Assembly: GCA_026398515.1 (NCBI GenBank)
Contig: JAPLSS010000446.1
Span: 1 to 40,230, forward strand
Reading direction: 5' to 3'
DNA length: 40,230 nt
DNA from: Candidatus Sumerlaeota bacterium
GTDB lineage: Bacteria; Sumerlaeota; Sumerlaeia; JAPLSS01
The number at the start of each line of letters is the position of its first letter. Position 1 is the first letter of the stretch. The notes under the pieces were generated by a model, which saw only the letters and a program-made list of their open reading frames with translations, did no database searches and was not told where the DNA came from. Positions 1,566 to 21,352 of the stretch are shown here, in pieces. The position numbers were made by a program, and so were the translations under genes.

Positions 1566-1670
1566 GGACGCCCCTCCATTCGGCAACGAGGTGGTTGATA
1601 CTGGAATGTAGAATCGGCAATAGTAAAGAGGCAAGCCACAAGTACACCGATGGCCGCTTGGAGGTTCGAC

Positions 1671-3350
1671 ATGAAAACCATGGCGATTAGCATCCATATC
1701 ATCCTTCTCCTATGGCTCGCCTGCGAACCCCTCAACGCGCGGACCATCGAAGCCGACAAAGCGCGTATCAAAACAGTCGGCGGGATGCAGGATGGCGCGT
1801 GGAACCTGTGGTCGATTGGGGAATGGGGCGATTACGTTGAGACCATCTCGCCTGGCGCCTACCGGCTTGCCGTGGAAGCCAAAGGCTCTCCTGCCGCCGG
1901 TCAATGGCCGATCATGGCCGTGGTCGTCGATGGGGAGTCCGTGGACAGAACGGAGGTCCAGACGCCGGCACTGAAGGTCTTCGCCTTTTCCCTGAACCTG
2001 AAGGCCGGGCATCACCGCGTCACTGTCCAGTTCATGAACGACCTTCTGGCCAATGGCGAGGACCGGAACCTCTATGTGAAGCGGATGACCTTGGAATCCG
2101 AGGACGGCGCAGGCGGTGTGGCAATGGGCGACGAAGCGGCTTGGCGGGCCGCTTGGACGAAGGAACAGGCGAGGCAGGAACAAGAGACGCTCGAGCAAGC
2201 CGCCAGCTCCATTGAGAAGTGCCGGAAAGAGGACGCTTCCTTCATTGTCAAAGACCTGGAAGGACGGCCCATCCCGGGAGCGTCGGTGAAGATCGAGCAA
2301 ACCGGCCATGAGTTCCTCTTTGGCGGCAACATTTACATGTTCGATCGCTTCGGCAGCCCATCCGAAAACGACGAGTATAAGGAGCGGTTCGCCGCGCTGT
2401 TCAACTATGCCACAGTGGGCTTCTATTGGCGCGCGTACGAACCGCAGCGCGGCAAGCCGGACTACCCATACACCGATCGAGTGGTCGCCTGGTGCAGAGA
2501 GCGCGGCATCCGAATGAAGGGACATCCGCTGCTTTGGGCCGAGGAATCCGGCATCCCGGCCTGGTCGAAGGGGCAGCCTTCCCCCGAGATTCAGCGGAAA
2601 CGAGTGTCGGACATTCTCCATCGATACCAGGAACAAATCGAGTTCTGGGAAGTGGTGAACGAGCCGGCGCATCTTCCCGATTTGCCGATTGACGACGCCT
2701 ACCGCTGGGCGCGCGAAGCGGATCCCGGCGGGCATCTCATCGTGAACGATTACCAGGTCATGGCCGACGGGTTCCCGCCGTTCTTTGACCTGCTGAAGGG
2801 GGCCATCGCGCGAAAGGTGCCGTTCGACGGAATCGGCATACAGGCGCACGAGCCGAACACGATGCGATTCCCTCTCGCGTCGGTTCACCGCACTTTGGAC
2901 CACTATGCCGAGTTGGGCAAGAAACTCCATATCACGGAGTTTACGCCGACGTCGGGCGGCGAACCCGTCATCGGCTCACCCGTGGAGGGAGTCTGGGACG
3001 AGACGACGCAGGCGGATTATGCGGCAAAGTTCTATACGGTCTGTTTTTCGCACCCGGCGGTCGCGGCGATCACATGGTGGGATTTGTGCGACAGGGGCTC
3101 ATGGCTGAAAGGCGGCGGCCTGCTGCGGAAGGATCTCACACCCAAACCGGCCTACGCCGCTTTGATGAAACTGATTCATGACGACTGGACAACAAGAGCC
3201 GCGGGCCAGACGGACGAAAACGGCTGCTTCCCCTTCCGCGGCTTCCGGGGAAGATACTCGGTCGATGTTGAGGCGGACGGAAAGCGCGCCAAGCGGGAAT
3301 ACAGTCTGGCTAAGAACGAATCCAACCGGATCGAGGTGACACTGAAATGA
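1671..3350 (+). CDS. Glycoside hydrolase family 10 (endo-xylanase-like) with N-terminal carbohydrate-binding-like module
   Basis: GH10 motifs 'KGHPLLW', 'WEVVNEP' (acid/base), 'DGIGIQAH', 'HITEF' (nucleophile). N-terminal 'FMND...EDRNLYV' resembles the CBM60-type module. GGAGG precedes ATG 1671; signal peptide. Confidence 0.88.
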   Translation: MKTMAISIHIILLLWLACEPLNARTIEADKARIKTVGGMQDGAWNLWSIGEWGDYVETISPGAYRLAVEAKGSPAAGQWPIMAVVVDGESVDRTEVQTPALKVFAFSLNLKAGHHRVTVQFMNDLLANGEDRNLYVKRMTLESEDGAGGVAMGDEAAWRAAWTKEQARQEQETLEQAASSIEKCRKEDASFIVKDLEGRPIPGASVKIEQTGHEFLFGGNIYMFDRFGSPSENDEYKERFAALFNYATVGFYWRAYEPQRGKPDYPYTDRVVAWCRERGIRMKGHPLLWAEESGIPAWSKGQPSPEIQRKRVSDILHRYQEQIEFWEVVNEPAHLPDLPIDDAYRWAREADPGGHLIVNDYQVMADGFPPFFDLLKGAIARKVPFDGIGIQAHEPNTMRFPLASVHRTLDHYAELGKKLHITEFTPTSGGEPVIGSPVEGVWDETTQADYAAKFYTVCFSHPAVAAITWWDLCDRGSWLKGGGLLRKDLTPKPAYAALMKLIHDDWTTRAAGQTDENGCFPFRGFRGRYSVDVEADGKRAKREYSLAKNESNRIEVTLK

Positions 3351-6124: not shown

Positions 6125-6149
6125 CGTCTCTGTTCGATTCGTTGCGGCC

Positions 6150-7331
6150 CTATGGGCGTCGCTCAACGGCTGGAAACGCCGGAAACCCAACGAGCGCCAT
6201 GACGGTGAAGCCCGCGACGTTGGAGAACTTCTCGCTGTCGGTTGCGGCCGTATCGCGTACGCCGCCGTTTTGGGGATCGAGCCCGTGGGCGACGATCCAA
6301 TCGAGTGAATCTTCAGGGACGGGCCCCGCCAAAGACGACGCGGCGAGGGCAAGCACCGAACTGCTCAAGGTGTATTTTGGATCGTCAGGGTAGCAAGAGA
6401 CAGAGCCATCGGGCTGCCTGCATCCGGCCAGCCACCGAAACGCCGCTTCGCTCTCGGGACTCTTCCCGAATACCCACGGAATGTAGCCTTGGGGGAAGAT
6501 GCCGTCGAATCCATCAAAGTCAGAGTCCAGATCCCCGTCCTTGTCCCTGCCAAGGCCAAATCGCCCCCGCTTCGCGTCGAAGAATCGCGAGCCAATCCGG
6601 TCTTTGATCGAGGACGCGGCCTGGCGATAGCGTTCGTCCCTGAAGAGCAACTCGCCTGAGCGCAACCCCAGGTAGACGTCGCCTTGGTCGGCCGTGTATT
6701 GGTAGCGCCACAGCCGCCATTTTCCATCGCGCTTTTTCTGCCAGGAGCTATTCGAGAAACCATCCGGGCTCCCGTTCCGGTTCAGAACAAAATCAAGGCC
6801 GGCCCGGGCGTTTGCTTCATAGCGCTTGGCCAGCGCATTGTCTCCGGTCAACGAGGAATGGAGGCAAAGCAGGTAACAAAACAGCGCGCTCGTCGCATCC
6901 ACACCGCGCGCGTCCAGGACCCCATCGCCGGGCGACACGGGCTTGGGCGCGTACGGCGGATTCGGCTCATACGCGAGGAACCAACTGCCGCGCCATTGGG
7001 GATCGGTCATCTCCTCCCGGGCCGCCAGCCACTGGATTCCCTTCTCCAGGCCGGTCCGGAACCGTGCGTCTCGGCTCTGCCAGAAGGCAGCGGCCAGGCC
7101 CATGAGCGCGTATTCCATGTTTGAGTCTTCGTTGCAGACGTCGCCGCTGGGAACGTCAGAAATGGCGCCATCGGGGTCCTGTTGGTTGAGGATGAAATCG
7201 GCGATGCGAACGGCCACGTCGCTGTAGTCTCTCCTGGCGCCAGGTTGCCCCGCCGCAGTGTCCGTGGCTATGACCACGTCGCCGATGACCGGCAGCAGCA
7301 GAACCGCACACATCGGGATGCTCCTCAGCAT
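6150..7331 (-). CDS. Secreted hypothetical protein, probable (alpha/alpha)-barrel (six-hairpin glycosidase / prenyltransferase-like repeats)
   Basis: 393-aa ORF with signal peptide and helical repeats ending in 'QQDPDGAI', 'CRQPDGSV', 'RNGSPDGF'. Confidence 0.55.
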   Translation of the reverse strand: MLRSIPMCAVLLLPVIGDVVIATDTAAGQPGARRDYSDVAVRIADFILNQQDPDGAISDVPSGDVCNEDSNMEYALMGLAAAFWQSRDARFRTGLEKGIQWLAAREEMTDPQWRGSWFLAYEPNPPYAPKPVSPGDGVLDARGVDATSALFCYLLCLHSSLTGDNALAKRYEANARAGLDFVLNRNGSPDGFSNSSWQKKRDGKWRLWRYQYTADQGDVYLGLRSGELLFRDERYRQAASSIKDRIGSRFFDAKRGRFGLGRDKDGDLDSDFDGFDGIFPQGYIPWVFGKSPESEAAFRWLAGCRQPDGSVSCYPDDPKYTLSSSVLALAASSLAGPVPEDSLDWIVAHGLDPQNGGVRDTAATDSEKFSNVAGFTVMALVGFPAFPAVERRP

Positions 7332-8310
7332 GGCCAGAGCCTCTCCGCGTCGCGCCCGGCGTTTTGCCCCGGAAAGAGAATCCTTCCGTTTGATCGAGCG
7401 GTATTCGCTTCGTCCAGGACCGACGCGCCTTGCTCATTATGGACGGAATCTGATTCCGGCCTCAAGCCCCGGATTTCCGCATCTTCTCAGGCAGGCCGGT
7501 TCGGATGTTCTGGCCACCTACCAGGCCTTTGGCACTCGTGCGATGCCAAGCCGGAAGCCATTGTCCCTGCCGCAGTTGGGTCGGCAATCGAAAAAAGACG
7601 CAGCTCTCATCATCCTCTCCTGATCCGGGCGTGGGTTCTTGATCACGCTACGAGCAGCCCGTCCACGTTTCTCAGCAATCGGAGCGATCTCGGATCATCA
7701 TGCCCAACCAGACGACTGCGCGCCAACGCCTTGAGAACGCCGAAAAAGAGGAAGTGAATAAGGTTCCTGTAGTGGGAAAGGATGGTTTTGACACTGCTTC
7801 CAGGTGTTGCTCTGCGCGCACCCCATCTCCCGCACGCATGGTTCTGTGAGGGGCGAGCGAGAACTGCCCCATGGTCGGAATCCCGTGGCGCCGCCGAGAA
7901 ACCAGGCGGAAACGGAGAACGCAAACGCCGAACCGCAGCGGTGGTAGAAACTCGTCCACTCGGCCTATATCCCTACGAGGCCACCAAGCTCTCGTGCGGC
8001 ATCGTTGGTGTCGCAGTTGAGATGCGGTTGAGAGATTGCCACCCCCAAGTCTCATCCAAGGCGTCAAGCCCGACCCTTGCAGCCGCCATGCGCAACGAGT
8101 TCGGGGCCGACTCCAGGCTGTTCGAAAGACTCCTGCCCGCAAGCGTTTCGGCGCTGTGAGACATGGCTCAGTGCCAGTTGAGTTGTACAAGGGCTGTACA
8201 TGGAAGTGTTTCTTGAGCGGTATATGCGAGTGTCGCCAGCGTGCTTCGAATGGCCTAAGTGTTGGTTCTTCAATCTCTAAGCCCAATGTTTTCAATGGCC
8301 CTTCGTTCGC

Positions 8311-8355
8311 CTTCTAATCCGACGGTCGGAGGTTCAAGTCCTCCCGGGCGCGCCA
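8311..8355 (+). pseudogene. tRNA 3' half (Arg-TCT-like), att-site remnant
   Basis: CTTCTAA loop, TCCGA, CGGTC, T arm GGAGG-TTCAAGT-CCTCC, acceptor strand CGGGCGC-G-CCA. No D arm or 5' acceptor strand upstream. Confidence 0.85.
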
Positions 8356-8388
8356 TTGAGAACAGCGAACTTGCGCAAGCATCGACCG

Positions 8389-8405
8389 TCGGATTTCATA
8401 TCCGA
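8389..8405 (+). repeat. Left att core TCGGATTTCATATCCGA
   Basis: Identical to 21336-21352; inverted TCGGA/TCCGA arms around a 7-bp spacer, as expected for a tyrosine-integrase core. Confidence 0.9.
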
Positions 8406-8438
8406 CGGTCGCAGGTTCAATTCCTGCCGGGCGCGCCA
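8389..8438 (+). pseudogene. Second tRNA 3' half carried at the left end of the element
   Basis: TCGGA-TTTCATA-TCCGA stem-loop, CGGTC, T arm GCAGG-TTCAATT-CCTGC, CGGGCGC-G-CCA. No 5' half; the loop is non-canonical. Confidence 0.85.
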
Positions 8439-8443
8439 TTCAA

Positions 8444-8456
8444 AATAAAGGACTTA
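8444..8456 (+). promoter_or_regulatory. IHF-like binding site in the att arm
   Basis: AATAAAGGACTTA has one mismatch to WATCAANNNNTTR and lies between the core and the arm repeats. Confidence 0.45.
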
Positions 8457-8483
8457 CGCGACGCATGGCAACAAGCGAAAAAT

Positions 8484-8508
8484 GCTCTAGGTAGCGTGCT
8501 AGGTAGCA
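8484..8508 (+). repeat. Integrase arm-type binding repeats (left)
   Basis: GCTCTAGGTAGCGT-GCTAGGTAGCA; the first 14 bp recur exactly at 21177-21190. Confidence 0.75.
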
Positions 8509-8512
8509 CCCG

Positions 8513-8552
8513 CCCCCGCCGCCCGGACTCCCCCGCCGCCCGGACTCCCCCG
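8513..8552 (+). repeat. 17-bp tandem repeat (CCCCCGCCGCCCGGACT, ~2.3 copies)
   Basis: Exact copies at 8513-8529 and 8530-8546, partial copy at 8547-8552. Confidence 0.85.
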
Positions 8553-8931
8553 GCTGCGTGCGTGTTTTCAGAGAAGCGGGGCGACGAATTCCCTCCACAA
8601 CCAGACCAACCCGGCCACAAGCAGCCGGATTGCCCCCCCCCACAGCATCCGCTGAACGAAACCCTCGTGTGATCGCATGTGCGTTTTCCCTGGACAAAAG
8701 AAGGGTGATTGAGCATGTTCAAGATCGCAAAGTCGAGCGTCGGCGATGGTCGTCACGCTGTGTCCCGGTCGCGAAGCAGATAGTACCGTCGCGCGCCCAT
8801 GCGATTCCCGGAATATAAGGTCTATTGATAGAGAACGCCGCCGGGTGTCGCAAGACGTTCTTTTTTGTGGAAATTCTCAAATCTTTCGCCTATCCTACGC
8901 ATAGAGAAATGTCGAATTGGAGGCGGGGCCA

Positions 8932-9510
8932 ATGCGATCCAAGCGTCCCATGCAGTTCAAACTCGCACCCGACAAAGCCGCGGCAGTTGCAGTCCTCTTC
9001 ATCAAGAAGACGGGCGTTCAAGGCAAGAAGATCAAGTACATGAAGTTGCTGAAACTCATGTATTTTCTGGATCGGATGGCATTGCTGAGGTGGGGTCATC
9101 CCATCGTGGGCGGTCAGTACGTCTCAATGGACTACGGACCCGTTCTCAGTGAAGTCCTTGACATGATCAAGCGCAGAGGTTCTTCGAGTGAATGGGAAAG
9201 TTGTGTCTCTGAACCGTTTGACGATCACTGGGTCCGTCTCAAGGGTGACAATGATCTGCTCTGCTTGAGTGAGGCTGAAGAACGACTTGCAATGGAGATA
9301 GCCCGCAAATTTGGGCGCCATTCCGAATTTCAACTGTCTTCGCTCTCGCATGAGGTATGCCCGGAATGGCAAGATCCAAGCGGCTCGTCAAGACCAATTG
9401 CATGCGAGTCGATTCTCAAAGCTGCGAATAAGTCGTCTGCGCAGATCCTGGAAATTCAAAAGGACGCAGCCGAAACGGAGATGATGAGAAGCATCATGGA
9501 GAGCGCATAA
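8932..9510 (+). CDS. Panacea-domain (SocA/DUF4065 family) antitoxin
   Basis: 'MKLLKLMYFLDR...GHPIVGGQYVSMDYGPV' and 'LSSLSHE.CPEW' match the family pattern (KLxKLxY, GPV, SH..W). GGAGG lies 8 nt before ATG 8932. Confidence 0.85.
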   Translation: MRSKRPMQFKLAPDKAAAVAVLFIKKTGVQGKKIKYMKLLKLMYFLDRMALLRWGHPIVGGQYVSMDYGPVLSEVLDMIKRRGSSSEWESCVSEPFDDHWVRLKGDNDLLCLSEAEERLAMEIARKFGRHSEFQLSSLSHEVCPEWQDPSGSSRPIACESILKAANKSSAQILEIQKDAAETEMMRSIMESA

Positions 9511-10007
9511 TGCCTCTTGCGCGGGGTGACACTTTCAAATCCGATCCCAAGTCTGTCGACGGAGAGAGACACTTGTGGATTATCGTGTTTGATCCACTGG
9601 TGAATGGGAATAAGACTCTGGCGTTAAACATCTCAACTTTCGACAATATGACGTGCCTTGATGACAGTTGCGTCCTAGATCCGTCCGAGTTTGCCCCCCA
9701 CCCGGAATTCGACCGCAAAAGTTACGTGAGATACGACAAAGCCATGTACGGCTCAGCCGATGGGGTTGAAGCCAACATCATATGCGGGGTGCTGATCCGG
9801 CATCCTGCTTTCGATCAAAAGGCCATACCATTGATCTTGGAGGGTGCGCTCAGGTCTAAGTATCTTAGAAGAGACCTTCGCCCGTTAATTCAAGATGAAC
9901 TGAAACGCATTCGAGCCGCGTCACATCCGCCACGTGTTACTCCGCCACATGACCGCCCAGACCAGCCCGCGCGCCGCCAGAACCGTGAGGGACCGGACGG
10001 CCCATGA
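9510..10007 (+). CDS. Putative toxin partner of the Panacea antitoxin, possibly PemK/MazF-like fold
   Basis: TAATG stop/start overlap with the antitoxin. 'RGDTF...HLWIIV...NISTF...HP...SYVRY' resembles a PemK-like beta-barrel pattern (inference). Confidence 0.6.
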   Translation: MPLARGDTFKSDPKSVDGERHLWIIVFDPLVNGNKTLALNISTFDNMTCLDDSCVLDPSEFAPHPEFDRKSYVRYDKAMYGSADGVEANIICGVLIRHPAFDQKAIPLILEGALRSKYLRRDLRPLIQDELKRIRAASHPPRVTPPHDRPDQPARRQNREGPDGP

Positions 10008-10033
10008 GTCGGGTCAGGCTGTGATCGTCGATC

Positions 10034-10702
10034 CTATGCGCCCTGGACGCGCTCTGCATAGGCCCTCATCGTCTTCTCGCCCTGTTCCTTCTTCCAAGTC
10101 GCAATGGCCCAAGACCAGAAGCCCCACTCCCGATCCGCAAGCCAATCGGCGCCCAGCTCTTCCCTATCCTCGGCGTAGGCGGCCAGCCGCTCTTTGTCTG
10201 ACGCCGCCGCCAGCGCCGGCGCCTGATAGTCGGGTATCCGCGCCTGCAACTCAGGATGCTGAATTTTGAGAAGACAGTGCGCCAACTCGTGGCCGATGGT
10301 GCGCAGGGCCACGGGGACGGGGATCTCCAGTAGGGCTTCGCAAAATCGCATCCGCCGATCACCCGCCTCAGCTAAGGAAAACCAATCCCGCCCTTCCCAC
10401 GTCGGCGCCAGCTCAATCCACGGAATCAGCGGCCCGACCTTTTTCATCTGGGCGCGCATCTCCGGCGATTCTTCCCTTTCCGAGGAGACTTGCAGCCTGC
10501 GCCAGTGATCTTGAATCTCGCTCACTGCGGACCTATGGAATTTCGTCGGCCCGCGCGGGATCTTGCCCAAAGCCTCAAGCCACAGGCGCGCGAACCGCCG
10601 GCCCTTCTCGCGGTCATGGAAGCGCAACGTGGCGTATCCTAAAATCAGCGGGATCTCATAGTTGCGCAATTCGTCGAGAGGCAATCTTGTTAAGTCGAGC
10701 AT
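10034..10702 (-). CDS. Zincin-like metallopeptidase domain protein
   Basis: 'TIGHELAHCLL' (HExxH) followed by 'ELGADWLA' (ExxAD third-ligand motif). GGAGG RBS lies in the end of the upstream gene. Confidence 0.7.
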   Translation of the reverse strand: MLDLTRLPLDELRNYEIPLILGYATLRFHDREKGRRFARLWLEALGKIPRGPTKFHRSAVSEIQDHWRRLQVSSEREESPEMRAQMKKVGPLIPWIELAPTWEGRDWFSLAEAGDRRMRFCEALLEIPVPVALRTIGHELAHCLLKIQHPELQARIPDYQAPALAAASDKERLAAYAEDREELGADWLADREWGFWSWAIATWKKEQGEKTMRAYAERVQGA

Positions 10703-10703
10703 G

Positions 10704-11657
10704 TCACCCTCCAGGGATTACGGCGTCAGGATTCTTTTTCCAATCGTCCGTATACCGGGTGATTGTTTCAGCAATGGCTTTCACCTGTTCCCAATCGGGC
10801 CGAATATGTACCCCGAAAATTCGATTCCCGGCGAAGAGTGAGTAATCCCAACGGAAATCGAACGTGGCGACATAGCTTCCATTCCAATAGCCCGTAGCCA
10901 TTGCAATGTGTTCCTTGGCAGAGGCGAGATAGTTTGTGCCCGCCGCCAAGTCGCCGAATGCAGGAATCAGGATCAATTTCTCTCCCGTGTAACCGGGATT
11001 GGCGCAGACCCATTGAATGATTTCAGTAAGGTCCGCCGTCCCTCTTTCATAGTGGACGCCGTTGACTACAACGTCCACGAGAGTGATTTCGAGGCCGATT
11101 CCCGCCGGCCGAATTGTAACAAGGGCTGGAATCGTGGCGTCAGCCAAGGCCCAGAATGCGCTGACTTTGACGTGGGTCTGATAACCGGGTATTGTGGATT
11201 CCTGAAGCTCGCCCAAGACCGTCCATCGGCGCTCGTCTGTTCTAATAGCATTCGTCAACTCGAAAGATGCAACCGCGCAATCGACTTCCAAAGCGTTCCA
11301 ACCGCCGGGGGGCGTCACTTCCCAGCCTTGAAGGAAGCATGTATAGAACCAAGTCGGATTGACTGTCAGGTCATCGGCGGGTCCGCAGCCGTCCTTGTAA
11401 CTATCCGGCGGCGTCTCTTCAACAAACCAGCCAGCCGTGCCAGTTCCTTCATAGGCCGTTCCCTCAAAAGGGTCTTTCAAGACCAGATCGTCCCGCGTGA
11501 AGTTCTTTGGCACGTCTTCCACAAGAGGAATCTTTACTTGGACATCCGCCGGTTTCCAATAGGGATAGCTTGCTCCGTAGGCTTCTCTCGAATACACGGA
11601 CAACAAGAGATTATATGCACTAACTAATTGCCCCACTGCGATCCATGCCATTGTCAT
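10704..11657 (-). CDS. Hypothetical protein (aromatic/beta-rich)
   Basis: 317-aa ORF with an ATGA overlap with the ERCC4 gene; no family recognised. Confidence 0.7.
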   Translation of the reverse strand: MTMAWIAVGQLVSAYNLLLSVYSREAYGASYPYWKPADVQVKIPLVEDVPKNFTRDDLVLKDPFEGTAYEGTGTAGWFVEETPPDSYKDGCGPADDLTVNPTWFYTCFLQGWEVTPPGGWNALEVDCAVASFELTNAIRTDERRWTVLGELQESTIPGYQTHVKVSAFWALADATIPALVTIRPAGIGLEITLVDVVVNGVHYERGTADLTEIIQWVCANPGYTGEKLILIPAFGDLAAGTNYLASAKEHIAMATGYWNGSYVATFDFRWDYSLFAGNRIFGVHIRPDWEQVKAIAETITRYTDDWKKNPDAVIPGG

Positions 11658-12253: not shown

Positions 12254-12262
12254 ACGGCGTCC

Positions 12263-12469
12263 TTAGAAGGGCAAGTCGTTGCTTTCATCAGCCGGAGAAA
12301 GATGTTCCGAGAACGCCGCCGCCTCTTCTTCATTCCTTGGCCATCTGCATTTTTCATGGCAGACCGGATCGGCTGTCCTGTGGTCACACGTACGCTCGTC
12401 TACGTGCTCGCATCCGTGACAAATGCCGATACTCCGAATATCGTTTTCTGTTTGAATAATGACGTGCAC
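12263..12469 (-). CDS. Small Cys/His-rich protein with acidic C-terminal ...DESNDLPF tail
   Basis: AGGAG 6 nt before the GTG start; CxxCxH, CxH and CxxxC clusters. Confidence 0.65.
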   Translation of the reverse strand: MHVIIQTENDIRSIGICHGCEHVDERTCDHRTADPVCHEKCRWPRNEEEAAAFSEHLSPADESNDLPF

Positions 12470-12502
12470 GATAGACTCCTTCTCGCTTTTGGTTTTGCTG
12501 AT

Positions 12503-12733
12503 TCAGAGTGTTCGCACTTCCACGCCTTGCTCAGTCCAGACGTGGACCTTTTCGAGAAATTGCCGACGTTCGCGCGGTTGCGCCCGCTTCTCTGTCGACG
12601 GGCGAGAGATGCCGGTCACACGGCGTGGCCTTGGCTTTGGCTCCGGCCTCGACTTAATTGGCTCCGACTTCGGTCCGCGACGCGGCCCGGCCAAAGTCCT
12701 GCGCCAATGTTGGAATGTTAGTGATCTTCCCAT
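12503..12733 (-). CDS. Small basic Arg/Pro-rich hypothetical protein (start uncertain)
   Basis: Fills the gap in a co-oriented gene run; in-frame ATG at 12733, but no well-spaced RBS. Confidence 0.35.
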   Translation of the reverse strand: MGRSLTFQHWRRTLAGPRRGPKSEPIKSRPEPKPRPRRVTGISRPSTEKRAQPRERRQFLEKVHVWTEQGVEVRTL

Positions 12734-12819
12734 GGGGCGGTCTTTGAAGTTACTCCTGAAAGATCCCCCAGGCCGCCGGACGAATCGAACGGCCCAGGGG
12801 CTTTCCCTGCAAGGGACAT

Positions 12820-13602
12820 TTAGAGAAGTCCCTGGAGACGCATTGTAACCATCGTGAGTGACAAACAAACACGAACTTCCTCTTTACTCCGTGGACACGC
12901 ATGCATGCATCTCTTCATCACCTCGGCAGACAGGCCGCGTTCGGTCGCTTCCGAAATGATATATTCTAAAATTTCAGTCTCATTCGGGCCAGATGATTTC
13001 GCTTCGCCCGCCGCCGCCTCGCCGCCAAAAGTCGCACTCAACAAACCGCCGGGGTTTGCGGCTGGCACGCTAACAACATCGCAAGCAAACAACACCTTCA
13101 AACGTACGTGGCGGAAGTTTGAAGTGTTCGCAGGGTCGGGGCTTACAAAACCTTTGGCTCCAACGTGCTCCATCAAGAATTGGTTTTCGTCCGTCGGGGA
13201 TCGGTCAAATACTATGGACAAACCGAACAGTTCCGGCGCTTCTTCCGCGAGTGCCAACACAAAATCAGTCAAGTTTCCACCGGGCGCGGATCGGGCTGTT
13301 TTCAAGAGTTCCAAATCGCCGATGGTCCTATTATCTCGCCTGCGAAATCTGACGAGTTTGCCAATGGTTTTTGCGGCGCCCTCATTTGCAGCGGGATGAT
13401 CCAGCCGGGACACAATACCGTTTGGTGCAGCATTGCCTAGTTGTTCAACGGAATTCAGTGTGGTTTCATCGATCCAAAGTTTATGGCCGAGTAGTTCGCC
13501 GGTCGTCATAATACTCACGCCGGAAATTCGAAGATGCTGCCGATCCACCCGGAGATCGGATGCGATACCGACAGCTAGGGTGACTACATTGCTCTTGTTC
13601 AT
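12820..13602 (-). CDS. Phage prohead (capsid maturation) protease-like protein
   Basis: Motifs in the expected order for the HK97/herpes-type protease fold: 'ISGVSIMTTG', 'SRLDHP' (His), 'GDL', 'FGLSIVF' (Ser), 'CDVVSVPAANPGGL'. Strong AGGAGG RBS and ATGA overlap. Confidence 0.72.
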   Translation of the reverse strand: MNKSNVVTLAVGIASDLRVDRQHLRISGVSIMTTGELLGHKLWIDETTLNSVEQLGNAAPNGIVSRLDHPAANEGAAKTIGKLVRFRRRDNRTIGDLELLKTARSAPGGNLTDFVLALAEEAPELFGLSIVFDRSPTDENQFLMEHVGAKGFVSPDPANTSNFRHVRLKVLFACDVVSVPAANPGGLLSATFGGEAAAGEAKSSGPNETEILEYIISEATERGLSAEVMKRCMHACPRSKEEVRVCLSLTMVTMRLQGLL

Positions 13603-14471
13603 GCTAGAACCTCCTGTTCAATTTGAATCAGAGCCGGCGACCAATCGAGCCAGCTTCGGCTCGTGCTCGTCGGTGTGGCCGCGATGCCGTGCGCCTTCAA
13701 CTCGCCCAAAACGTAGGCCTTCCACCGCTGTGAGTCGGATGTGCCGGAGCTCACGCCGTCCATTTTGCGGACACCCTGAAGACTCAGCGTTTCGCTCTTG
13801 GCGATCTGCCCGGTGGCGCGCAACCAAGACACACCTCCATGAATACAAACCCGCTCGATGTGTTCCGCTTGCTCAGTCGCTTTCGTTTTCCGAGTGCGCC
13901 AGTCAGTTAAGATGCTTTGCCCGGCCGCGCGGTCAATCGTGGTAGCCGGATCGGTGAGCAACAACTCGAATTCGTCAGGACTGCCGGCGAAGAAGCACAA
14001 CGAAACGCGGTCTTCGAACCGCGCCAGATCCGCCTCGCGAAGGGCGTCGGCAATGCGTGTTTCGTATTCTTCTGCCTTTGCTTGAACTTCCGCGAGTCGG
14101 GCGCGGGCTTCTTCCAATGTCGGCTCAAGATTTTGGCACGCGCCACGAAATTGGTCGGCGTCAAATTCGAGCGCCGAGGGCCGAAGAGATAGTTCCGCAC
14201 AGACCGCCGCGCCATGACGCTTTGCCAGTTCGGAGAGAAGACTTCGTTGCACGTCAACCGCCGTGCGCGCTGCCATGACCGCTTGGCACCCTTTCGTGTT
14301 CTTCAATTCCCTGCCTTCCACGATGGCCGATGCAGCCGACACCCCGGCCTCTGCCAGCGCGGACTCCGCTTCGCTTTCGAGCCGATGGAGTTCTTCCAGG
14401 CCGCCAACGACCAGCCGCCCCAAGTGTTGGGCTTCAGCGGTTGCTACTTGATAACCCTCTGCCTCAGACAT
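13599..14471 (-). CDS. Hypothetical protein, alpha-helical/coiled-coil
   Basis: 290-aa Ala/Glu/Leu-rich ORF ('LEEARARLAEVQAKAEEYETRIADALREADL'), AGGAG RBS, overlaps both neighbours. Confidence 0.75.
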   Translation of the reverse strand: MSEAEGYQVATAEAQHLGRLVVGGLEELHRLESEAESALAEAGVSAASAIVEGRELKNTKGCQAVMAARTAVDVQRSLLSELAKRHGAAVCAELSLRPSALEFDADQFRGACQNLEPTLEEARARLAEVQAKAEEYETRIADALREADLARFEDRVSLCFFAGSPDEFELLLTDPATTIDRAAGQSILTDWRTRKTKATEQAEHIERVCIHGGVSWLRATGQIAKSETLSLQGVRKMDGVSSGTSDSQRWKAYVLGELKAHGIAATPTSTSRSWLDWSPALIQIEQEVLA

Positions 14472-14962: not shown

Positions 14963-15361
14963 TCATCTTGTCGCACCCCGACGCGCCGATGTAGGTCGGC
15001 CATGACCTGTTCGACGATACCGCCAGCCTGAATCACATGACAGCGCCCTCCGTAGACTCTCGACCGCCACCGGCGGCGCGGGATGGCACCGCGAGCACAG
15101 ACGGCCTGATGGCAAGATCCAGAACGACGTCGACCCGCAGCACGAGCAAGGCGGCAAGGTGTGCATCCGGCCAACCAGATCCCGAATCGCTTCGGCCAAG
15201 CCAGCGTCAAGACAGGCCGATGGCCAGACGAAGATCCCGCCGTTGACCTCACAGAGCACACCGCCAGCGGCATAGACAGCGGCCACAGGATCTGACGCGG
15301 ACGGCGGCGATTGCACTTCCACGGCTTGCATCTGTCGCCTAATCGCTTCGAGAGCGTTCAT
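14963..15361 (-). CDS. Small protein with Zn-ribbon-like motif, downstream of the primase
   Basis: GGAGG RBS; 'CSCCGSTSFW...LCSRCHP'. Confidence 0.65.
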   Translation of the reverse strand: MNALEAIRRQMQAVEVQSPPSASDPVAAVYAAGGVLCEVNGGIFVWPSACLDAGLAEAIRDLVGRMHTLPPCSCCGSTSFWILPSGRLCSRCHPAPPVAVESLRRALSCDSGWRYRRTGHGRPTSARRGATR

Positions 15362-15388: not shown

Positions 15389-15492
15389 ATATGACGCATA
15401 TGACGCGACTTTCGTACTTCCCTCTCACATATATATGTGCGCGCGTCCGGGGAGAAGTGTAGTGGCAGCGTCATATACGTCATATGCATCAT
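15389..15492. other. Putative replication origin: iteron-like direct and inverted repeats
   Basis: ATATGACGC x2 (15389-15406); inverted copies GCGTCATAT, ACGTCATAT, GCATCAT (15468-15492); palindrome CACATATATATGTG (15426-15439) between them; directly after the primase-helicase stop. Confidence 0.7.
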
Positions 15493-17516
15493 CATCGAAC
15501 CTCAACCCATACGCCGACAAAGCCCCGGATGACGCCGCCGGCAGCCGTACACCACCGGTCGGTTGCCACGCCCAGGCGCTGGAGCTCACGAGTCATGCGG
15601 TTACGGCTCATGGCCTCGTGCCCAGATTCGTTGCACCAAGCGCGGTAGTCGGTGTAGACCGTCTCCCCCGGAATACGCGCCCCAGGACGGTCGACCAGCC
15701 GCTCTTCGCGCCAGGCCTGAAGCGGGTTGCACTCCCGGCGATAGGCTTCGAGTTCGGCCTTGATCCGGTCGGACAGATCGAAGTGGCCACGGGCCGACAG
15801 GCGCCGTAGACCTTCGAGTGACCAATTCAAGATCCCGGGCAGCTCCGCCAGCAGTTTCTCGTCGAGATTCCGGTCTTGCTCTTGCTCGTCGAATTCGCGG
15901 GGAAAGCGAATCGGAATCAGCCGGCGCCAGACGCCATTTGACCGGTCGTTAATGTGCGGCGGGTTGTTCGTGGCAAAAACGAATCGGGCCACGTTCCGCA
16001 TAGTGAAGGGATCGCGGCCCTTACGCTCGACTTCTACGGTGTCGCCGGAAATCAGGGACTTGACCCAACCCTCATCGATATCGTGGGCGAGCTCCATTTC
16101 CGGCAAGACGTTCAACAGCTTCCCTTGTAATGCGGCTGTCGGAAACGTGCGGTCGCTGCGCAGGGCGGACAGGGCCACGCCAGCCACGTTCACCCGGCCT
16201 AGAAGGTTCTCCTGAATGCGTACCACGCGGCCCTTCCCGTTGCCGCCCTCGCCGATGTACACCACCGCCTTCTCTTGAGAAGAGTCGGGGATAAGCGAGT
16301 ATCCAAACCACTCTTGCAGCAGCTCTCGCGCGGCTGGATCATCGGGGAGCACTTCTATTAAGAACCTCTGAAAACGCGGATAGGTAGCTGTAGCGTCGTA
16401 TGTCACGGGGAGAAGGTTGCGGCAACGGAAACGCGGATCGTGCGCCAAGAGATCCGACATTGCGACATTGAGCATTCCGTTCTGGCAGGCAATCAGGATC
16501 GCGCCATCGGTCTGAGGTTCATCAAAGAACGCGCTGGATTGCCACGTCAGGTTTTCCAACAGCCGCATGGCGTCGGCGAGATTAGAGCGCCGCGCCGACG
16601 TCCCCGCCATCGTAATGGCCCGGCTCTCGAGCTGGTGCAGATCGCGTTCCACATAGACCCGGCCATCAAAATCCCAAAAGGCCCCCGTCGTGAAAATGAG
16701 ATAGGGATATTCATTACAAATTGCCTCAGCCACCCGGAGCGGGATGAGCTTCCCGGCCTCGTCGAACACATTCACCTCATATTGGCATGCGGACTTGGTG
16801 ATCCCGTCGAGATCCTTATCTGGCATAGGCGGGACGCACCGTGCGTTTGCAGCCGTCAGTCCCGCTCGAATTTCCAGCGCCTCCAAACCTTTAGAGCGGA
16901 GGGAGCACGCTAGACGAAACAATGTTTGACCCCGCCGCCCGTCAGGGATCTGGCCTTCAATCTTGAGCGGTGCCTTATGGCCATTGCTCTCCGCGCCCGC
17001 GCGCATTAGATCGGCCAACCATGCCGGCATGAGCGCCAGAGGCACGTCGGCGGGATGCTTCAGCCATTCGTACGATCGCCCGTTGGCGTGAATGCTCCCT
17101 GGCGCAACGATGGACCCCCGGTCGTTCTTAACATCCAGACCGGGGAGGAATTTCGTGTCGTTGTTGATGCCTGCCTGATAGTGGAAATAGTAATGCCGCC
17201 CACCGCCGCCCGTTCGCACCATCGGCGTCTCAGGGAGCGGCCCGTGCTTCGCTTCGAGCTCCGCCAGCGTGCGTTGTCCCTCTTCCCCGTCGATGTCGAG
17301 TATGGTGAGACCCGACACCGCGCCAGTGACAATCGCCGGATTCGCTGTAGGAAAATTCTGCCACCATCCCCGAATCATCTCCCGGTCGGTAGTGGCCACG
17401 TCGGGCCAATTATCAAGTATCCCACGTTTACCATTGACGGGGTGGACACAAAATCCCATTTCGGCGAGCGCCAAAGCATGATCACACTTCGGGTTTGTGG
17501 CCGTCAGGGTTTCCAT
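15492..17516 (-). CDS. Bifunctional Prim-Pol fused to PriCT-like, D5_N and SF3 helicase domains (P4-family primase/helicase)
   Basis: Prim-Pol 'ILDIDG', 'RTGGGGRHYYF', 'VAPGSIH'; 'IPDGRRGQTLFRLA' (PriCT-like); 'CQNGMLN' (D5_N); Walker A 'GEGGNGKG', 'FATNNPP', 'WRRL'. Confidence 0.93.
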   Translation of the reverse strand: METLTATNPKCDHALALAEMGFCVHPVNGKRGILDNWPDVATTDREMIRGWWQNFPTANPAIVTGAVSGLTILDIDGEEGQRTLAELEAKHGPLPETPMVRTGGGGRHYYFHYQAGINNDTKFLPGLDVKNDRGSIVAPGSIHANGRSYEWLKHPADVPLALMPAWLADLMRAGAESNGHKAPLKIEGQIPDGRRGQTLFRLACSLRSKGLEALEIRAGLTAANARCVPPMPDKDLDGITKSACQYEVNVFDEAGKLIPLRVAEAICNEYPYLIFTTGAFWDFDGRVYVERDLHQLESRAITMAGTSARRSNLADAMRLLENLTWQSSAFFDEPQTDGAILIACQNGMLNVAMSDLLAHDPRFRCRNLLPVTYDATATYPRFQRFLIEVLPDDPAARELLQEWFGYSLIPDSSQEKAVVYIGEGGNGKGRVVRIQENLLGRVNVAGVALSALRSDRTFPTAALQGKLLNVLPEMELAHDIDEGWVKSLISGDTVEVERKGRDPFTMRNVARFVFATNNPPHINDRSNGVWRRLIPIRFPREFDEQEQDRNLDEKLLAELPGILNWSLEGLRRLSARGHFDLSDRIKAELEAYRRECNPLQAWREERLVDRPGARIPGETVYTDYRAWCNESGHEAMSRNRMTRELQRLGVATDRWCTAAGGVIRGFVGVWVEVR

Positions 17517-17518
17517 CG

Positions 17519-17731
17519 TCAGGCCCTCGCCGGCTGGTCGCTCGTGGACCGGCGCGCCCCGGCCTCGGCGTACTCTTCCAACTCATCTTGTTTATATCTG
17601 ACCGCGCCTTTGAACTTGTGATAAACAGGCCCGCCCCCGCGCGTCCTCCACGACTCCAACGTTGCCTTTGACAACCCAAGGAAGTTCGCGGCCTCCTTGG
17701 TTTTAACATAAGCTTGCAATGTATCCGACAT
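17519..17731 (-). CDS. AlpA/excisionase-like helix-turn-helix protein
   Basis: 'TKEAANFLGLSKATLESWRTRGGGPVYHKFKGAVRY'; AAAGGAG RBS; directly upstream of the primase. Confidence 0.88.
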   Translation of the reverse strand: MSDTLQAYVKTKEAANFLGLSKATLESWRTRGGGPVYHKFKGAVRYKQDELEEYAEAGARRSTSDQPARA

Positions 17732-17886: not shown

Positions 17887-18621
17887 TTATCGTCGCGGGG
17901 ATTTGGAAATCAGTCTCTGGACTTCTGCGATGTCATCATGGATCGTCTTTTCAGTTGTCTCACATACGATTTCTTGGAGAACGAACGCGATAATCGCTTC
18001 GCGTTCCGCGGCGTCCTTGACATCGGCCACTTGGAGCGCGTCACTCATGGCGAAGTGAACGCAGTTCGCCGGATAAACCGACGTGGCACGGCCTGACGCG
18101 GCCCGTCTCTGGCCAATGGCCAAGATGAATCGTGATTTGAGCGAATGCAAAATCTCATGGCGCGCCTGGTGGGTCTTGAAAATGCCTCGCTCCTCGAATG
18201 CTCTCAGGAGATGGCCATATCGCTCCCCAATGAACACAGCCGCAAGCCGGCGCGTATCGGGGTCGGGAGGAATGCACGCGAGGGAAAGCCATGCGGAATC
18301 TGTATCCGCGTAGCGGGTCTTGTAGTAATCATAAACCGGCTGGAGGAGTTTCATTTCCCGCCGATACCCTTCCACCTGTTCCTTGGACAGGTCGTTGTCC
18401 CTTTTGGCGCCGCGACAGACGGCCAGAAGCATCAGGCAGTGCACCACTTCATCAGATAGGCATGATTTACTCGCTCGCCTCTGGATCTTCGCGCGAATCG
18501 TCGCCAATGCTTCGGCCTGACAATGGCCAGCAAGTCGTTCGGCAAAGAAGCCTTCGGGATGGTCTATCGGTTCTTGTTTAATTGTGATAAGGGTCTTCAC
18601 GGCGCGCCTCCGCTTGCGCAA
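17887..18621 (-). CDS. Hypothetical protein
   Basis: 244-aa ORF, TTG start after GGAG, located between the recombinases and the HTH gene. Confidence 0.65.
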   Translation of the reverse strand: MRKRRRAVKTLITIKQEPIDHPEGFFAERLAGHCQAEALATIRAKIQRRASKSCLSDEVVHCLMLLAVCRGAKRDNDLSKEQVEGYRREMKLLQPVYDYYKTRYADTDSAWLSLACIPPDPDTRRLAAVFIGERYGHLLRAFEERGIFKTHQARHEILHSLKSRFILAIGQRRAASGRATSVYPANCVHFAMSDALQVADVKDAAEREAIIAFVLQEIVCETTEKTIHDDIAEVQRLISKSPRR

Positions 18622-18730: not shown

Positions 18731-19801
18731 CTATTGGTCAAGTCCTTTGCCCCTCGCGCCGCCATCAACCCCCGCGTCCAATTTGCCAACGGCGTCCCTC
18801 AATTCCTCCGCGTTCACGCTGACATATATCTGTGTCGTTGCGACGCTTCCATGACCCATCAAAGATCGTATCTCCACAATGTCCACGCCCCGCCGATGCA
18901 ACCCTGTTCCAAAACTATGTCGCAAGGCATGCGGATGGCCCTTGATGGCGGCGATTCCCGCCTTCCTGGCGTGCTTGGCCAGCGCCTTCTCCACCCCCCT
19001 TGGGGAAAGGGTTTTCAGCAAGTAGCTGATGAATAGGCTACCCGTCTTCCCGCCGGGTCGGACTTCTAGGTATTTTTGAAGCGCATCCGACAGCCCCTGA
19101 TTCAACGGGATGGGTCGCTGTTTTCTACCCTTGCCATTTATCAACATCGTGCGATTGACGAAATCCACGTCGTCCACGCCGAGATTGATAAGCTCTTGCA
19201 ACCTCAATCCTCCGAAGGCGAAGGCCGCCAGCATCGCCGCGTCTCTTCGCCCAAGCCACGTTCCCATGTCAGGAATCGAAAGCAACCGATCCAATTCGTC
19301 TTCCGTGAGGTAAACCGGCAGATTGTAGGGTCGTTTTGGATTAGCAAACCCGCGCGCCGGACTGACCGCAAGATGGCCGATGCGGACACCATAGGCGAGG
19401 AAACCTCGAATACTGGATAGGGCGCGGGTTGTGGTGATCGCCCCGCACCCTCGGCGGTGCAGTTTCTCAAGAAACCCCGAAATGGTTTCAGGCCTGATTT
19501 GCTGGACTGTCGGCGCGGGTCCCCCGGATTCTTCCATGAAGGAACGAAATCGGCCCAGATCATAGACATAGGCCGCGATGGTCTTCGGAGACAATCCTTT
19601 GACCGCGGCCAGGTAGCTCTCATATTCGTCAATCGCTTCGGCAAGAGATTTGGGCGGACCCGACTCGACTTCGGCGCCCTTGCCCGCCGCCCGCAGATCC
19701 TCAATGGTTTTGGTCAGGATTTTGATCTGGCGGACGAGCGCCGCCAGCATCGTGTTTTCAGTCTTGCCCTCGCCGGGGCGTTTCGATACGGTTTTCCTCA
19801 C
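18731..19801 (-). CDS. XerC/XerD-like tyrosine recombinase
   Basis: SAM-like N-domain ('KGLSPKTIAAYVYDL') and full catalytic set: 'GLRLQEL' (R), 'GKGRKQR' (K), 'HPHALRHSF', 'LMGH', 'TTQIY'. Confidence 0.92.
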   Translation of the reverse strand: MRKTVSKRPGEGKTENTMLAALVRQIKILTKTIEDLRAAGKGAEVESGPPKSLAEAIDEYESYLAAVKGLSPKTIAAYVYDLGRFRSFMEESGGPAPTVQQIRPETISGFLEKLHRRGCGAITTTRALSSIRGFLAYGVRIGHLAVSPARGFANPKRPYNLPVYLTEDELDRLLSIPDMGTWLGRRDAAMLAAFAFGGLRLQELINLGVDDVDFVNRTMLINGKGRKQRPIPLNQGLSDALQKYLEVRPGGKTGSLFISYLLKTLSPRGVEKALAKHARKAGIAAIKGHPHALRHSFGTGLHRRGVDIVEIRSLMGHGSVATTQIYVSVNAEELRDAVGKLDAGVDGGARGKGLDQ

Positions 19802-19938: not shown

Positions 19939-21165
19939 TCAGGCCCCTTTTCCCGCCTCTTTCGCCTCTTCCCGCGCGCCCGGCGTGGCGTCCACGATCT
20001 CAGCGCCATCCATTTCCATCATGGCCTTGATGGTCTTCCCTATGAGTTCGGCGGCCGCGTGGAGCGGGTCGTTTTGAAGGTTGGCGTATCGGGCAGTCGT
20101 TTGCGGAACCGTATGGCCCATGAGAGCGCCAATGATCGGCAATCCCAGGCCCAGCCCCGCCGCCGTGCCGCCGTAGACGTGGCGCATATCGTGGATGTTG
20201 AAATCCGCCAGTTTCGCCGCGTCGCAAATCGTCTTCCACGGCTTCGCGGGATTCGTCAACGGCTCCCCCCTCTTCCGGCCTGGAATGACCCAGCCGGACG
20301 GATGGCGTTCGATCCGGTCAAGGACTTCGATGGCCGCTTCGGAGAGTACAACGTCTTTCGGCCCGGTCTTGCTATCCCTGAGATGAAGCGTCTTGTTTGC
20401 CGGGTCGTAATCTTCCCACCGCAGGCCACGGATTTCGCCGCTCCTCATGCCGGTGAACAGCGCCACTCGGAAGAAGTCGATGGACGCCTGGGGGACCAGT
20501 CTCTTTTCTTCATGGTCCTTGAGCGCCCGCGCCAGCCGGATCATCTCCTCGGGGCTGAGGAACCGCCGGCGCGCCGTCTCCCGGAACCGTTTGACGAGCC
20601 GACACGGATTCGAAGCGTCTTTGCGCAGCCCCATGAGCTCGGCCACATTCATCATCTTAGAGAGGCAAGACAAGACACGGTTGGCTGTTATAGGCTTTTC
20701 GGCTATGCTCTCCTGGAGCCGGAGAACGTCGCCCCGGTGAATGGCGTTGACGCGCATCTTCCCCAGCGCCGGCTTGATGTACTTGCTGAGATACCATTCG
20801 TCATCCTTCACGCTCCGGGGCTTCTTGTGGCGCTTGGCGTAATTGTCGATGTAGTGCTGCGCGAATTCCTGAAGGGTCTGGACCTTCCGCGCCTTCTGGC
20901 GTTCGAGGGAAACGTCTTGACCCTGGTCCGCCGCTGAGAGAATCCTCCGCGCCTCCCTCCGCGCCTCTTCCACCGTCATGCGGCCATAGACTCCGACCAG
21001 TGGACGCCGTTGCTGCATTCCAATCCGGTAATAGGCCAGAAACGACCGCTTCCCCTTGGGCGTGACTTTGACCGCGAAGCCCGGCGTCTCGGAATCCCAG
21101 ACGATGATGTCCTTGTCCGCCGGCTTGAGAGAGTCGATCAGGGTCTTCGTGAGTTTCGCTTTCAT
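19939..21165 (-). CDS. Site-specific integrase (tyrosine recombinase with N-terminal arm-binding domain)
   Basis: 'KLTKTLIDSL...WDSETPGFAVKVTPKGKRSF' arm-binding domain; 'TGMRSGE', 'DSKTG', 'HDMRH', 'LMGH', 'TTARY'; adjacent to the right att core. Confidence 0.95.
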   Translation of the reverse strand: MKAKLTKTLIDSLKPADKDIIVWDSETPGFAVKVTPKGKRSFLAYYRIGMQQRRPLVGVYGRMTVEEARREARRILSAADQGQDVSLERQKARKVQTLQEFAQHYIDNYAKRHKKPRSVKDDEWYLSKYIKPALGKMRVNAIHRGDVLRLQESIAEKPITANRVLSCLSKMMNVAELMGLRKDASNPCRLVKRFRETARRRFLSPEEMIRLARALKDHEEKRLVPQASIDFFRVALFTGMRSGEIRGLRWEDYDPANKTLHLRDSKTGPKDVVLSEAAIEVLDRIERHPSGWVIPGRKRGEPLTNPAKPWKTICDAAKLADFNIHDMRHVYGGTAAGLGLGLPIIGALMGHTVPQTTARYANLQNDPLHAAAELIGKTIKAMMEMDGAEIVDATPGAREEAKEAGKGA

Positions 21166-21176: not shown

Positions 21177-21200
21177 GCTCTAGGTAGCGTTCAAGTAGCA
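21177..21200 (+). repeat. Integrase arm-type binding repeats (right)
   Basis: GCTCTAGGTAGCGT-TCAAGTAGCA; 14 bp identical to 8484-8497. Confidence 0.75.
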
Positions 21201-21335: not shown

Positions 21336-21352
21336 TCGGATTTCATATCCGA
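21336..21352 (+). repeat. Right att core TCGGATTTCATATCCGA
   Basis: Identical to 8389-8405. Confidence 0.9.

Follow-up and report, generated by a model that had tools for sequence, protein, structure and literature searches.

A lone prohead protease homologue in a satellite-like island of a Candidatus Sumerlaeota genome

The window, that is, the whole stretch of DNA analysed here, is the entire 40,230-bp contig JAPLSS010000446.1 (C879) of the Candidatus Sumerlaeota assembly GCA_026398515.1, which comprises 7.6 Mb in 1012 contigs and is 92.6% complete. It contains a gene for a homologue of prohead (capsid-maturation) serine proteases, situated in an island of 12.9 kb at approximately 8.4–21.35 kb (Table 1). 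The GC content drops from ~0.60–0.66 in the flanks, which on both sides consist of host genes for carbohydrate-active and other enzymes, to 0.52–0.59 at 8–21 kb. An exact 17-nt direct repeat is present at 8389–8405 and 21336–21352, 12,947 bp apart, and no other copy of it was found in the assembly. The island shares with satellites resembling phage-inducible chromosomal islands (PICIs) an integrase, an HTH_17 (AlpA-type) protein, a Prim-Pol/D5 replication protein, att-type direct repeats (here the 17-nt pair), and a size within the range of ~8–18 kb. This layout suggests that the island is probably a PICI- or P4-like satellite, integrative and helper-dependent. A first-pass annotation of the window had described the protease gene as an orphan, located in an element without capsid, portal, or terminase genes. 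The present results agree with that description: the open reading frame (ORF) is real, and no terminase, portal, or capsid gene was found in the island by Pfam, PHROGs, tblastn, or hhalign.

The protease ORF is preceded by a strong ribosome-binding site (AGGAGG, 7 nt ahead of the ATG), as had been noted before; its ATG overlaps the TGA stop codon of the upstream 290-aa ORF (ATGA), and the GC content of its three codon positions is coding-like (0.59/0.45/0.53). The protease domain spans approximately residues 15–190 and is followed by a Gly/Ala linker and a helical tail of ~50 aa. Three alignments of the protease, of 8, 24, and 17 sequences, were used, and H69 and S129 were invariant in all of them, showing that the His and Ser motifs recognized in the first-pass annotation are intact. 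H40, H165, D175, and the PAAN motif were invariant in the 24-row alignment, of which the window protein keeps all 24 invariant columns. H69 and S129 would form the catalytic pair, an assignment deduced from conservation and made without a structure-based superposition. Herpesvirus proteases have a His-Ser-His triad. Like the prohead proteases of the assemblin fold, the window protein has a conserved His and Ser, with a further His (H165) after the Ser, an order resembling the herpesvirus triad. Behind the domain, the conserved motif PAANPGGL occupies residues 180–187, the Gly/Ala-rich stretch 188–213 was predicted with a confidence score (pLDDT) below 50, and three low-confidence helices were predicted at 208–259. 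This arrangement corresponds to the short C-terminal extension after a flexible linker that had been described from the sequence.

The protein was not named by the family collections. Pfam gave no family at E ≤ 0.01 and, at E ≤ 10, a sole match to TacA1 (E 0.17, 12.3 bits); PHROGs gave nothing at E ≤ 0.1; and with Pfam Peptidase_S78 (PF04586) the protein remained below threshold, with no match anywhere in the assembly. A word-indexed protein search returned seven relatives besides the protein's own record. In an exhaustive phmmer search of 1.84 billion cluster representatives, with a homologue cut-off of E ≤ 1e-3, 2093 homologues were obtained, including 1142 at E ≤ 1e-10 and 97 at E ≤ 1e-30. 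The best non-self match (E 1.1e-42) was 51% identical and 418 aa long, and nearly all matches spanned just query residues ~16–200. When 18 relatives were scanned with Pfam, four were found to carry an HK97-type capsid domain (Phage_capsid_4 or Mu-like_gpT) fused at the C terminus, and the other 14 had no family.

The structural comparison was performed with an AlphaFold2 model built from 8 sequences, which had a mean pLDDT of 64 and core blocks at 77–93. Against a VIA-align library of 48,161 representative chains, the top chain was T4 gp21 (5jbl_A; Z 8.6, root-mean-square deviation 3.7, 135 of 165 residues aligned, model range 15–179), the sole chain with Z ≥ 8. The proteases of varicella-zoster virus and cytomegalovirus were aligned over the same domain at Z 5.8 and 4.8, and many other rows at Z 5–6 covered the helical tail alone. 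With Foldseek, no PDB chain matched the model at E ≤ 1e-3, and the top three rows were T4 gp21 chains (E 0.15–0.25); the identity between the window protein and gp21 was 13–15%. Against predicted viral structures (BFVD), Foldseek gave 21 matches at E ≤ 1e-3, several of them annotated as prohead or capsid-maturation proteases. Searching PDB sequences with a profile returned chance matches only, such as a glutaminase at E 0.08, and these were discarded.

Taken with the model, these results indicate that the ORF most probably encodes a genuine capsid-maturation protease of the herpesvirus-assemblin/T4 gp21/HK97 gp4 fold, and the fold assumed in the first-pass annotation was thus upheld by structure prediction. 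That the ORF might not encode a protease, being a chance frame or having another fold, would be compatible with the lack of a Pfam or PHROG family, the absence of PDB Foldseek matches at E ≤ 1e-3, and the mean pLDDT of 64. However, this explanation is contradicted by the 2093 homologues (best E 1e-42), some of them fused to capsid domains and most in a head-module context, and by the confident core with T4 gp21 as its single top structural match; we consider it highly improbable.

Relatives of the protease were collected from two sources. A pattern scan with the 24-row alignment yielded 57 loci in species-representative genomes, mostly of Planctomycetota, and among viral contigs 545 of 600 candidate stretches qualified with the same alignment as the query, the best 80 of which were kept. 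With the 260-aa protein as a single query, no locus was retrieved from the viral contigs, whereas the alignment query did retrieve them. The head modules were analysed in detail in 10 long genome loci and more widely in a census of 136 loci. In all 10 long loci, the gene directly upstream of the homologue was a Pfam portal gene (lambda family in nine, Mu in one); a gpA-type large terminase lay ahead of the portal in eight, and a Pfam capsid (GP7 or Mu-like gpT) was found downstream of the homologue in eight. In the census, for which hidden Markov models of portal and capsid were built from Pfam-confirmed neighbour proteins, a portal was upstream in 70 of the 95 loci with enough room, and a capsid or fusion was downstream in 93 of 115. 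Among the exceptions, a Pfam scan of 43 neighbour proteins identified Phage_portal in L063, L064, L031, and L124, Phage_capsid in L039, L063, and L064, and Phage_capsid_4 in L035, and the remaining scanned neighbours were without family. The rule that prohead proteases are encoded between portal and capsid genes, on which the first-pass annotation relied, therefore holds for the relatives, whereas the window gene has neither a portal nor a capsid neighbour.

Complete homologous ORFs were present in 127 of the 136 loci, with lengths of 228–917 aa, and just one was shorter than the 260 aa of the window protein. Two forms were distinguished. The long form (~370–450 aa) has a helical C-terminal half and is directly followed by a capsid of ~310 aa, and these proteins look like protease-scaffold fusions. 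The short form (286–311 aa) is followed by a capsid of 427–527 aa with its own N-terminal extension (PF05065 in L039, L063, and L064). From its sequence, the window protease appears to belong with the short forms. Most relatives resemble P2 gpO (Pfam Phage_GPO) in combining a protease domain with a long C-terminal helical part ahead of a capsid gene, and one of them matched Phage_GPO below threshold over its C-terminal part (17 bits against a cut-off of 33.6 bits); the window protein, in contrast to such gpO-type fusions, has no such C-terminal part. Members of the family, most of them fused to a scaffold-like helical half, occur widely in viral contigs and in prophages of Planctomycetota, Verrucomicrobiota, and Bacteroidota. 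None of 25 relatives scanned matched a Pfam protease family, and neither Pfam nor PHROGs matched the window's own protein. Judged on these 26 scanned members, a prohead-protease(-scaffold) family of 2093 representatives seems to be uncatalogued in Pfam, and a large family is thereby brought to light.

In a FastTree phylogeny of 116 domain sequences, a large clade of 87 rows (support 96) excluded the window protein, which fell into a group without internal resolution together with L087, L124, and the HK97-type rows L063, L064, and L006. Two relatives in the census differ in their surroundings: the protease-capsid pairs in L035 (4237–9600) and L039 (9023–12231) have no portal directly upstream and are preceded by an ATP-grasp gene and a 270-aa ORF and by a small-terminase gene and a 138-aa ORF, respectively. 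These loci could represent additional head modules that are satellite-like or reduced in some other way.

The search for head genes in the island was performed at several levels. Capsid, portal, and terminase genes were not named by Pfam or PHROGs among the island proteins, and when 45 head proteins of 10 related loci were used in tblastn, the contig was matched only by the 10 protease queries. In hhalign comparisons of seven unknown island ORFs with capsid, portal, and terminase profiles, the probabilities did not exceed 1.4%, and positive controls gave 99.9% and 89%. A further control, the capsid encoded on contig C356 of the same assembly, gave 0.49% against the GP7-type profile, so the comparison is blind across capsid families and its negative result is therefore not a test of fold. 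In relation to the HK97 fold, for which the first-pass annotation had suggested a check of all ORFs, the low-confidence model of the 290-aa ORF consists of helices only, which is not an HK97 fold. In the downstream interval 12254–12819, where the first-pass annotation had observed small ORFs in place of a major capsid gene, only the 68-aa ORF and ~300 bp whose ORFs show no coding-like codon-position GC were found, and neither tblastx nor tblastn revealed a trace of a degraded capsid or scaffold there. Assembly searches with Pfam Mu-like_gpT, GP7, Phage_portal, and Terminase_6N found no match, a negative limited by the assembly's completeness of 92.6% and by a GP7 control that matched no genome. 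Within the island, no head gene other than the protease could be detected, with the 317-aa orphan ORF covered by sequence searches only.

Other packaging functions were likewise sought. No small terminase was identified by Pfam or PHROGs in the island, leaving the protease and the 290-aa ORF as the only candidates for a role in packaging or morphogenesis, and no Pfam or PHROG match to the P4-like proteins Sid, Psu, Delta, or Epsilon was obtained. The model of the 290-aa ORF showed long helices and zero strands at a pLDDT of 55, and a scaffold-like role is our guess from this model. In the ESM Atlas, this ORF gave leads below 0.9 only, one of which (0.86, under the usable level) pointed to a cluster with Psu in 20% of its members. 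A complex prediction of the protease with the 290-aa ORF scored 0.00 and was uninformative either way.

A sister island was found in the same assembly. The Pfam Phage_capsid (PF05065) search of the assembly gave a single match (E 1.5e-36), on contig C356, to an ORF of 519 aa in which the capsid domain begins at residue 224 and the N-terminal region is coiled-coil-like by eye. It is a capsid protein of the HK97 family, and its N-terminal part is probably a scaffold (delta) domain. Two genes after it lies an ERCC4 nuclease that is 45.7% identical over 197 aa to the ERCC4 nuclease of the window, followed by ~95 nt near-identical to window positions 8437–8530 and then by a tRNA-Gln(CTG) gene. The gene set of C356 (L141) reads HK97 capsid, 205-aa ORF, ERCC4 nuclease, island end, and tRNA-Gln. 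On contig C119 (L140), the order is an integrase (67.6% identical to that of the window), an HTH protein (48%), a Toprim/AAA_25 replication protein, and a Cys-rich ORF (63%), the last being the homologue of the 132-aa Cys-rich ORF of the window in the same position. The ORF that follows is a putative small terminase, judged from position and look only, and the last ORF, cut by the contig end, matched the large-terminase profile in hhalign (89%, E 2e-6) and has Walker-like motifs. We infer that the two contigs represent opposite ends of a single island, with the stretch between them outside the assembly. This sister island looks like a capsid-forming satellite on the basis of its genes, and its layout, which includes an HK97 capsid and a fragment of a large terminase, fits that of the capsid-forming PICIs (cf-PICIs).

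On C356, the capsid gene stands where the window has the protease, the 68-aa ORF, and the non-coding-like DNA. Because a sister island with the same frame and the same end retains a terminase fragment and a capsid, the lone state of the window protease is probably derived by gene loss. Among the observations that the first-pass annotation had named as arguing against its interpretation was a capsid gene retained in related elements, and this was found in part: the capsid on C356 stands two genes upstream of the ERCC4 orthologue, and the ~95-nt island end is shared as well.

A second lone copy was found in L046, an 11.6-kb contig of a Planctomycetaceae metagenome-assembled genome. Its satellite-like stretch (169–10798) contains an integrase, an AAA_25 helicase, a 173-aa ORF that is small-terminase-like by eye, a 228-aa protease homologue, and a helical 278-aa ORF; the homologue is preceded by the small-terminase-like ORF and followed by the helical one. 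H69 and S129 are kept in this homologue, H40 is replaced, and its end branch is 1.91. No capsid, portal, or terminase was detectable in L046.

Satellites take over or reshape helper capsids by means of scaffolds (Sid, CpmB, TcaP) or of capsid homologues, and capsid-forming PICIs have reportedly been described in a preprint by Alqurainy et al. (10.1101/2022.09.08.507074). According to two papers, cf-PICIs carry an integrase, a regulator, and a primase module followed by head genes in ~13–14 kb (PMC10690885, PMC10085698). The window island fails their defining features, having no detectable terminase, portal, capsid, or head-tail connectors. The first-pass annotation had stated that the proposed strategy was not known from described satellites. 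This part did not hold, since serine proteases in capsid-less satellites are already mentioned in print. de Sousa et al. 2023 (PMC10085698) state that the serine-protease component of cf-PICIs is "occasionally also found in PICI" and postulate that it modifies hijacked capsids. Marine satellites that lack major capsid genes were described by Eppley et al. 2022 (PMC9618062), who link the serine proteases encoded in one of the modules to procapsid maturation.

The window island can be compared with both. Like the PICIs mentioned in PMC10085698, it has a phage-type serine protease and no capsid gene; however, those PICIs were in Proteobacteria or Firmicutes hosts, whereas the present host belongs to a phylum sampled by 75 representative genomes in total, and the window protease matches no Pfam or PHROG model and is accompanied by no small terminase that we could find. 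Module 2 of the virion encapsidated integrative mobile elements (VEIMEs) of PMC9618062 likewise comprises satellites found in virions that encode serine proteases but lack a major capsid gene. Their annotation there is that of periplasmic serine proteases, so the VEIME enzymes probably represent another family, and VEIMEs are packaged as concatemers. A literature search on phage satellites or cf-PICIs combined with prohead or head maturation proteases found no experimental test of such a protease; the role of a satellite-borne maturation protease is thus one that has been postulated in print. The clean lone protease and the capsid-bearing sister island form a natural before-and-after pair for the role of the protease after loss of the head module.

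We consider that there is about an even chance that the window gene encodes an intact, probably active maturation protease left from the head module of a capsid-forming satellite and kept for action on delta-domain proheads of a helper or of the sister island; its status as a remnant of loss is suggested because the sister island carries a capsid and a terminase. The island lineage would then descend from a capsid-forming satellite ancestor, and the window island would have lost its terminase, portal, and capsid genes with the protease retained. Retention would be explained if the protease still enters, or acts on, proheads of delta-domain capsid proteins, which may come from a helper phage or the sister island and whose scaffold domains it would cut to the island's benefit. 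The open frame, the strong ribosome-binding site, the stop-start overlap, the coding-like GC, and the 24 retained invariant columns favour such a function. The protein also keeps 35 of the 44 columns that reach at least 85% conservation across 115 other rows, compared with an overall mean identity of 39%. The second lone copy in L046 and the published proteases of capsid-less satellites likewise speak for this reading. What the first-pass annotation had proposed, a satellite using its own protease, stands with regard to the fold, the catalytic residues, the only detectable head gene, and the short tail; the lone state looks like a product of loss and not like a designed minimal kit, and the reprocessing, resizing, or sabotage of helper proheads that it envisaged is not supported.

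Several observations weigh against retention for function. The end branch of the window protease measures 1.17 against a median of 0.38, approximately three times as long, and the placement of so long a branch is unsure. The nine changes among the 44 well-conserved columns compare with one in the median row, which keeps 43 of 44, and fit relaxed constraint. Behind the domain, long and short forms share a conserved segment to which the tail can be aligned only poorly, and the C-terminal scaffold part that most relatives carry is absent. HK97 gp4 reportedly enters proheads through its C-terminal part, as Duda et al. are said to have described in 2013. With a diverged tail and no scaffold part, the window protein may no longer have the customary way into proheads. 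A search for a helper prophage with a matching capsid found none, and the only Pfam-detectable capsid in the assembly is that of the sister island. No second homologue of the protease was found in the assembly or in 74 other genomes of the phylum, and the sister island may or may not use this protease family.

Many of the same observations would be expected if the island were a decaying capsid-forming satellite in which the protease gene outlived the deletions, is undisrupted as yet, and does nothing, and we regard this as a possible though rather unlikely explanation. Loss is the direction of change, since the sister island keeps its capsid and terminase; the branch is long, nine of 44 conserved columns are changed, the tail is shortened and diverged, ~300 bp of non-coding-like DNA lie in the expected place of the capsid gene, and no close relatives of the island were found. 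However, a frame of 260 codons has remained open with a strong ribosome-binding site and translational coupling, and all 24 invariant positions are retained, the two residues proposed as catalytic among them. Six of the nine changes, F/L, D/E, G/A, Y/F, and R/K being examples, are conservative, and an independent second lone copy exists in the satellite-like island L046, a pattern also reported in PMC9618062 and PMC10085698. Should the gene nevertheless be a relic, it would be an ordinary snapshot of satellite decay.

The absence of the scaffold part and the divergence of the tail can also be read in terms of interference or defence, whereby a protease without a targeting tail would mis-cut the scaffold or capsid precursors of a helper and block its assembly. 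The other cargo of the island is typical of defence-carrying satellites (the Panacea toxin-antitoxin pair, the ERCC4 nuclease, and the HExxH protein), and satellites commonly interfere with the assembly of helper capsids, as stated in PMC9618062. On the other hand, PADLOC assigned no family to 11 island proteins. A defence system built on a prohead protease is not known to us, although no search aimed at one was made; this also counts against the explanation, which we judge improbable. A similarly low probability is given to the hijacking of capsids without an own capsid gene, in which the protease and the co-translated 290-aa helix protein would form a two-part module that enters the proheads of another element, be it a helper phage or the capsid-forming sister satellite of the same cell, and re-cuts or mis-cuts their scaffold domains. 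If this were true and the sister island were the target, one satellite would be parasitizing the capsids of another.

Table 1. Annotated features of the island and its ends (positions in the window)
Feature	Position	Strand	Remarks
Left island end	8373..8530	plus	degenerate tRNA-like sequence 8373–8435, then ~95 nt of island end
SocA/Panacea antitoxin-like gene (8917–9510) and overlapping 165-aa partner (9510–10007)	8917..10007	plus	tRNA-proximal cargo (Pfam/PHROGs)
222-aa ORF with HELAH (HExxH) motif	10034..10702	minus	no family (Pfam, PHROGs)
317-aa orphan ORF	10704..11657	minus	coding-like composition; no homologues
ERCC4-type nuclease, 199 aa	11654..12253	minus	Pfam, PHROGs
68-aa Cys/His-rich ORF	12263..12469	minus	own AAGGAG site; no Pfam family; in the gap where relatives have the capsid gene
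Prohead (capsid-maturation) serine protease homologue	12820..13602	minus	260 aa; ATG start
290-aa orphan ORF	13599..14471	minus	stop overlaps protease start; no homologues; GC1/GC2/GC3 0.67/0.49/0.64, coding-like
132-aa ORF, Cys-rich (CxxC...CxxC)	14963..15361	minus	zinc-ribbon-like by eye; after primase gene; ORF list
Replication protein (primase-helicase)	15492..17516	minus	Prim-Pol, PriCT_1, D5_N, DUF5906, Pox_D5 (Pfam)
HTH_17 (excisionase/AlpA-type) small DNA-binding protein	17519..17731	minus	Pfam
244-aa ORF	17887..18621	minus	no family (Pfam, PHROGs)
Second tyrosine recombinase (XerC/D-like)	18731..19801	minus	Pfam
Island integrase with arm-binding domain	19939..21165	minus	Pfam
Right 17-nt repeat, likely right island boundary	21336..21352	plus	one of two copies in the assembly

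The composition of the island changes at 13599–13602. From the protease through the SocA/Panacea genes, the GC content is mostly 0.51–0.54 (0.61 in the 222-aa ORF), and from the integrase to the 290-aa ORF it is 0.56–0.64. Because this step coincides with the protease start, the translationally coupled 290-aa/protease pair may join two modules of different origin. For the 317-aa ORF, the ESM Atlas gave no usable match. A diverged second SocA/Panacea pair is present on contig C894 (1574–2472), with identities of 30% and 26%.

At the left end, the repeat copy at 8389–8405 lies within the anticodon stem-loop of the tRNA-like sequence. The latter scored 26.9 bits against the Rfam tRNA model (threshold 29) and was not reported by ARAGORN, and on these two grounds a tRNA-Sec or suppressor tRNA gene at this position was rejected. 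Just inside this end, a 17-nt unit (CCCCCGCCGCCCGGACT) is perfectly duplicated in tandem at 8513–8546, and on C356 the near-identical shared island end breaks down around the region of this duplication. A 19-nt direct repeat (89% identical) was also found at 8484–8502 and 21177–21195, the right copy being just upstream of the integrase start; these repeats near the island ends could be arm sites of the recombinase.

Public sequencing runs were also searched. No RNA run was found, and one DNA run contained 27% of the words searched for; from its reads, only exact fragments of the contig could be placed, at 2–4x depth, so that stretches without coverage carry no information. A joint between 10223 and 20945 was set aside, as one of its sides is merely 21 letters long and too short for trust.

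Just before the tRNA-like sequence, the window contains a 45-nt 3' fragment of tRNA-Arg(TCT) at 8312–8356. The same fragment occurs on C941 (6385–6435), C196 (3690–3735), and C867 (11844–11888), and the sole intact gene is on C979. The scattered fragments suggest that islands integrated repeatedly at that tRNA or that the assembly represents a mixed population. A further element lies on C178 (L143, 1154–5533) next to a host GrpB gene, with an integrase 37% identical to that of the window, an HTH homologue, a 362-aa ORF, and an AAA_25 protein. Several related integrative elements are thus present in the genome.

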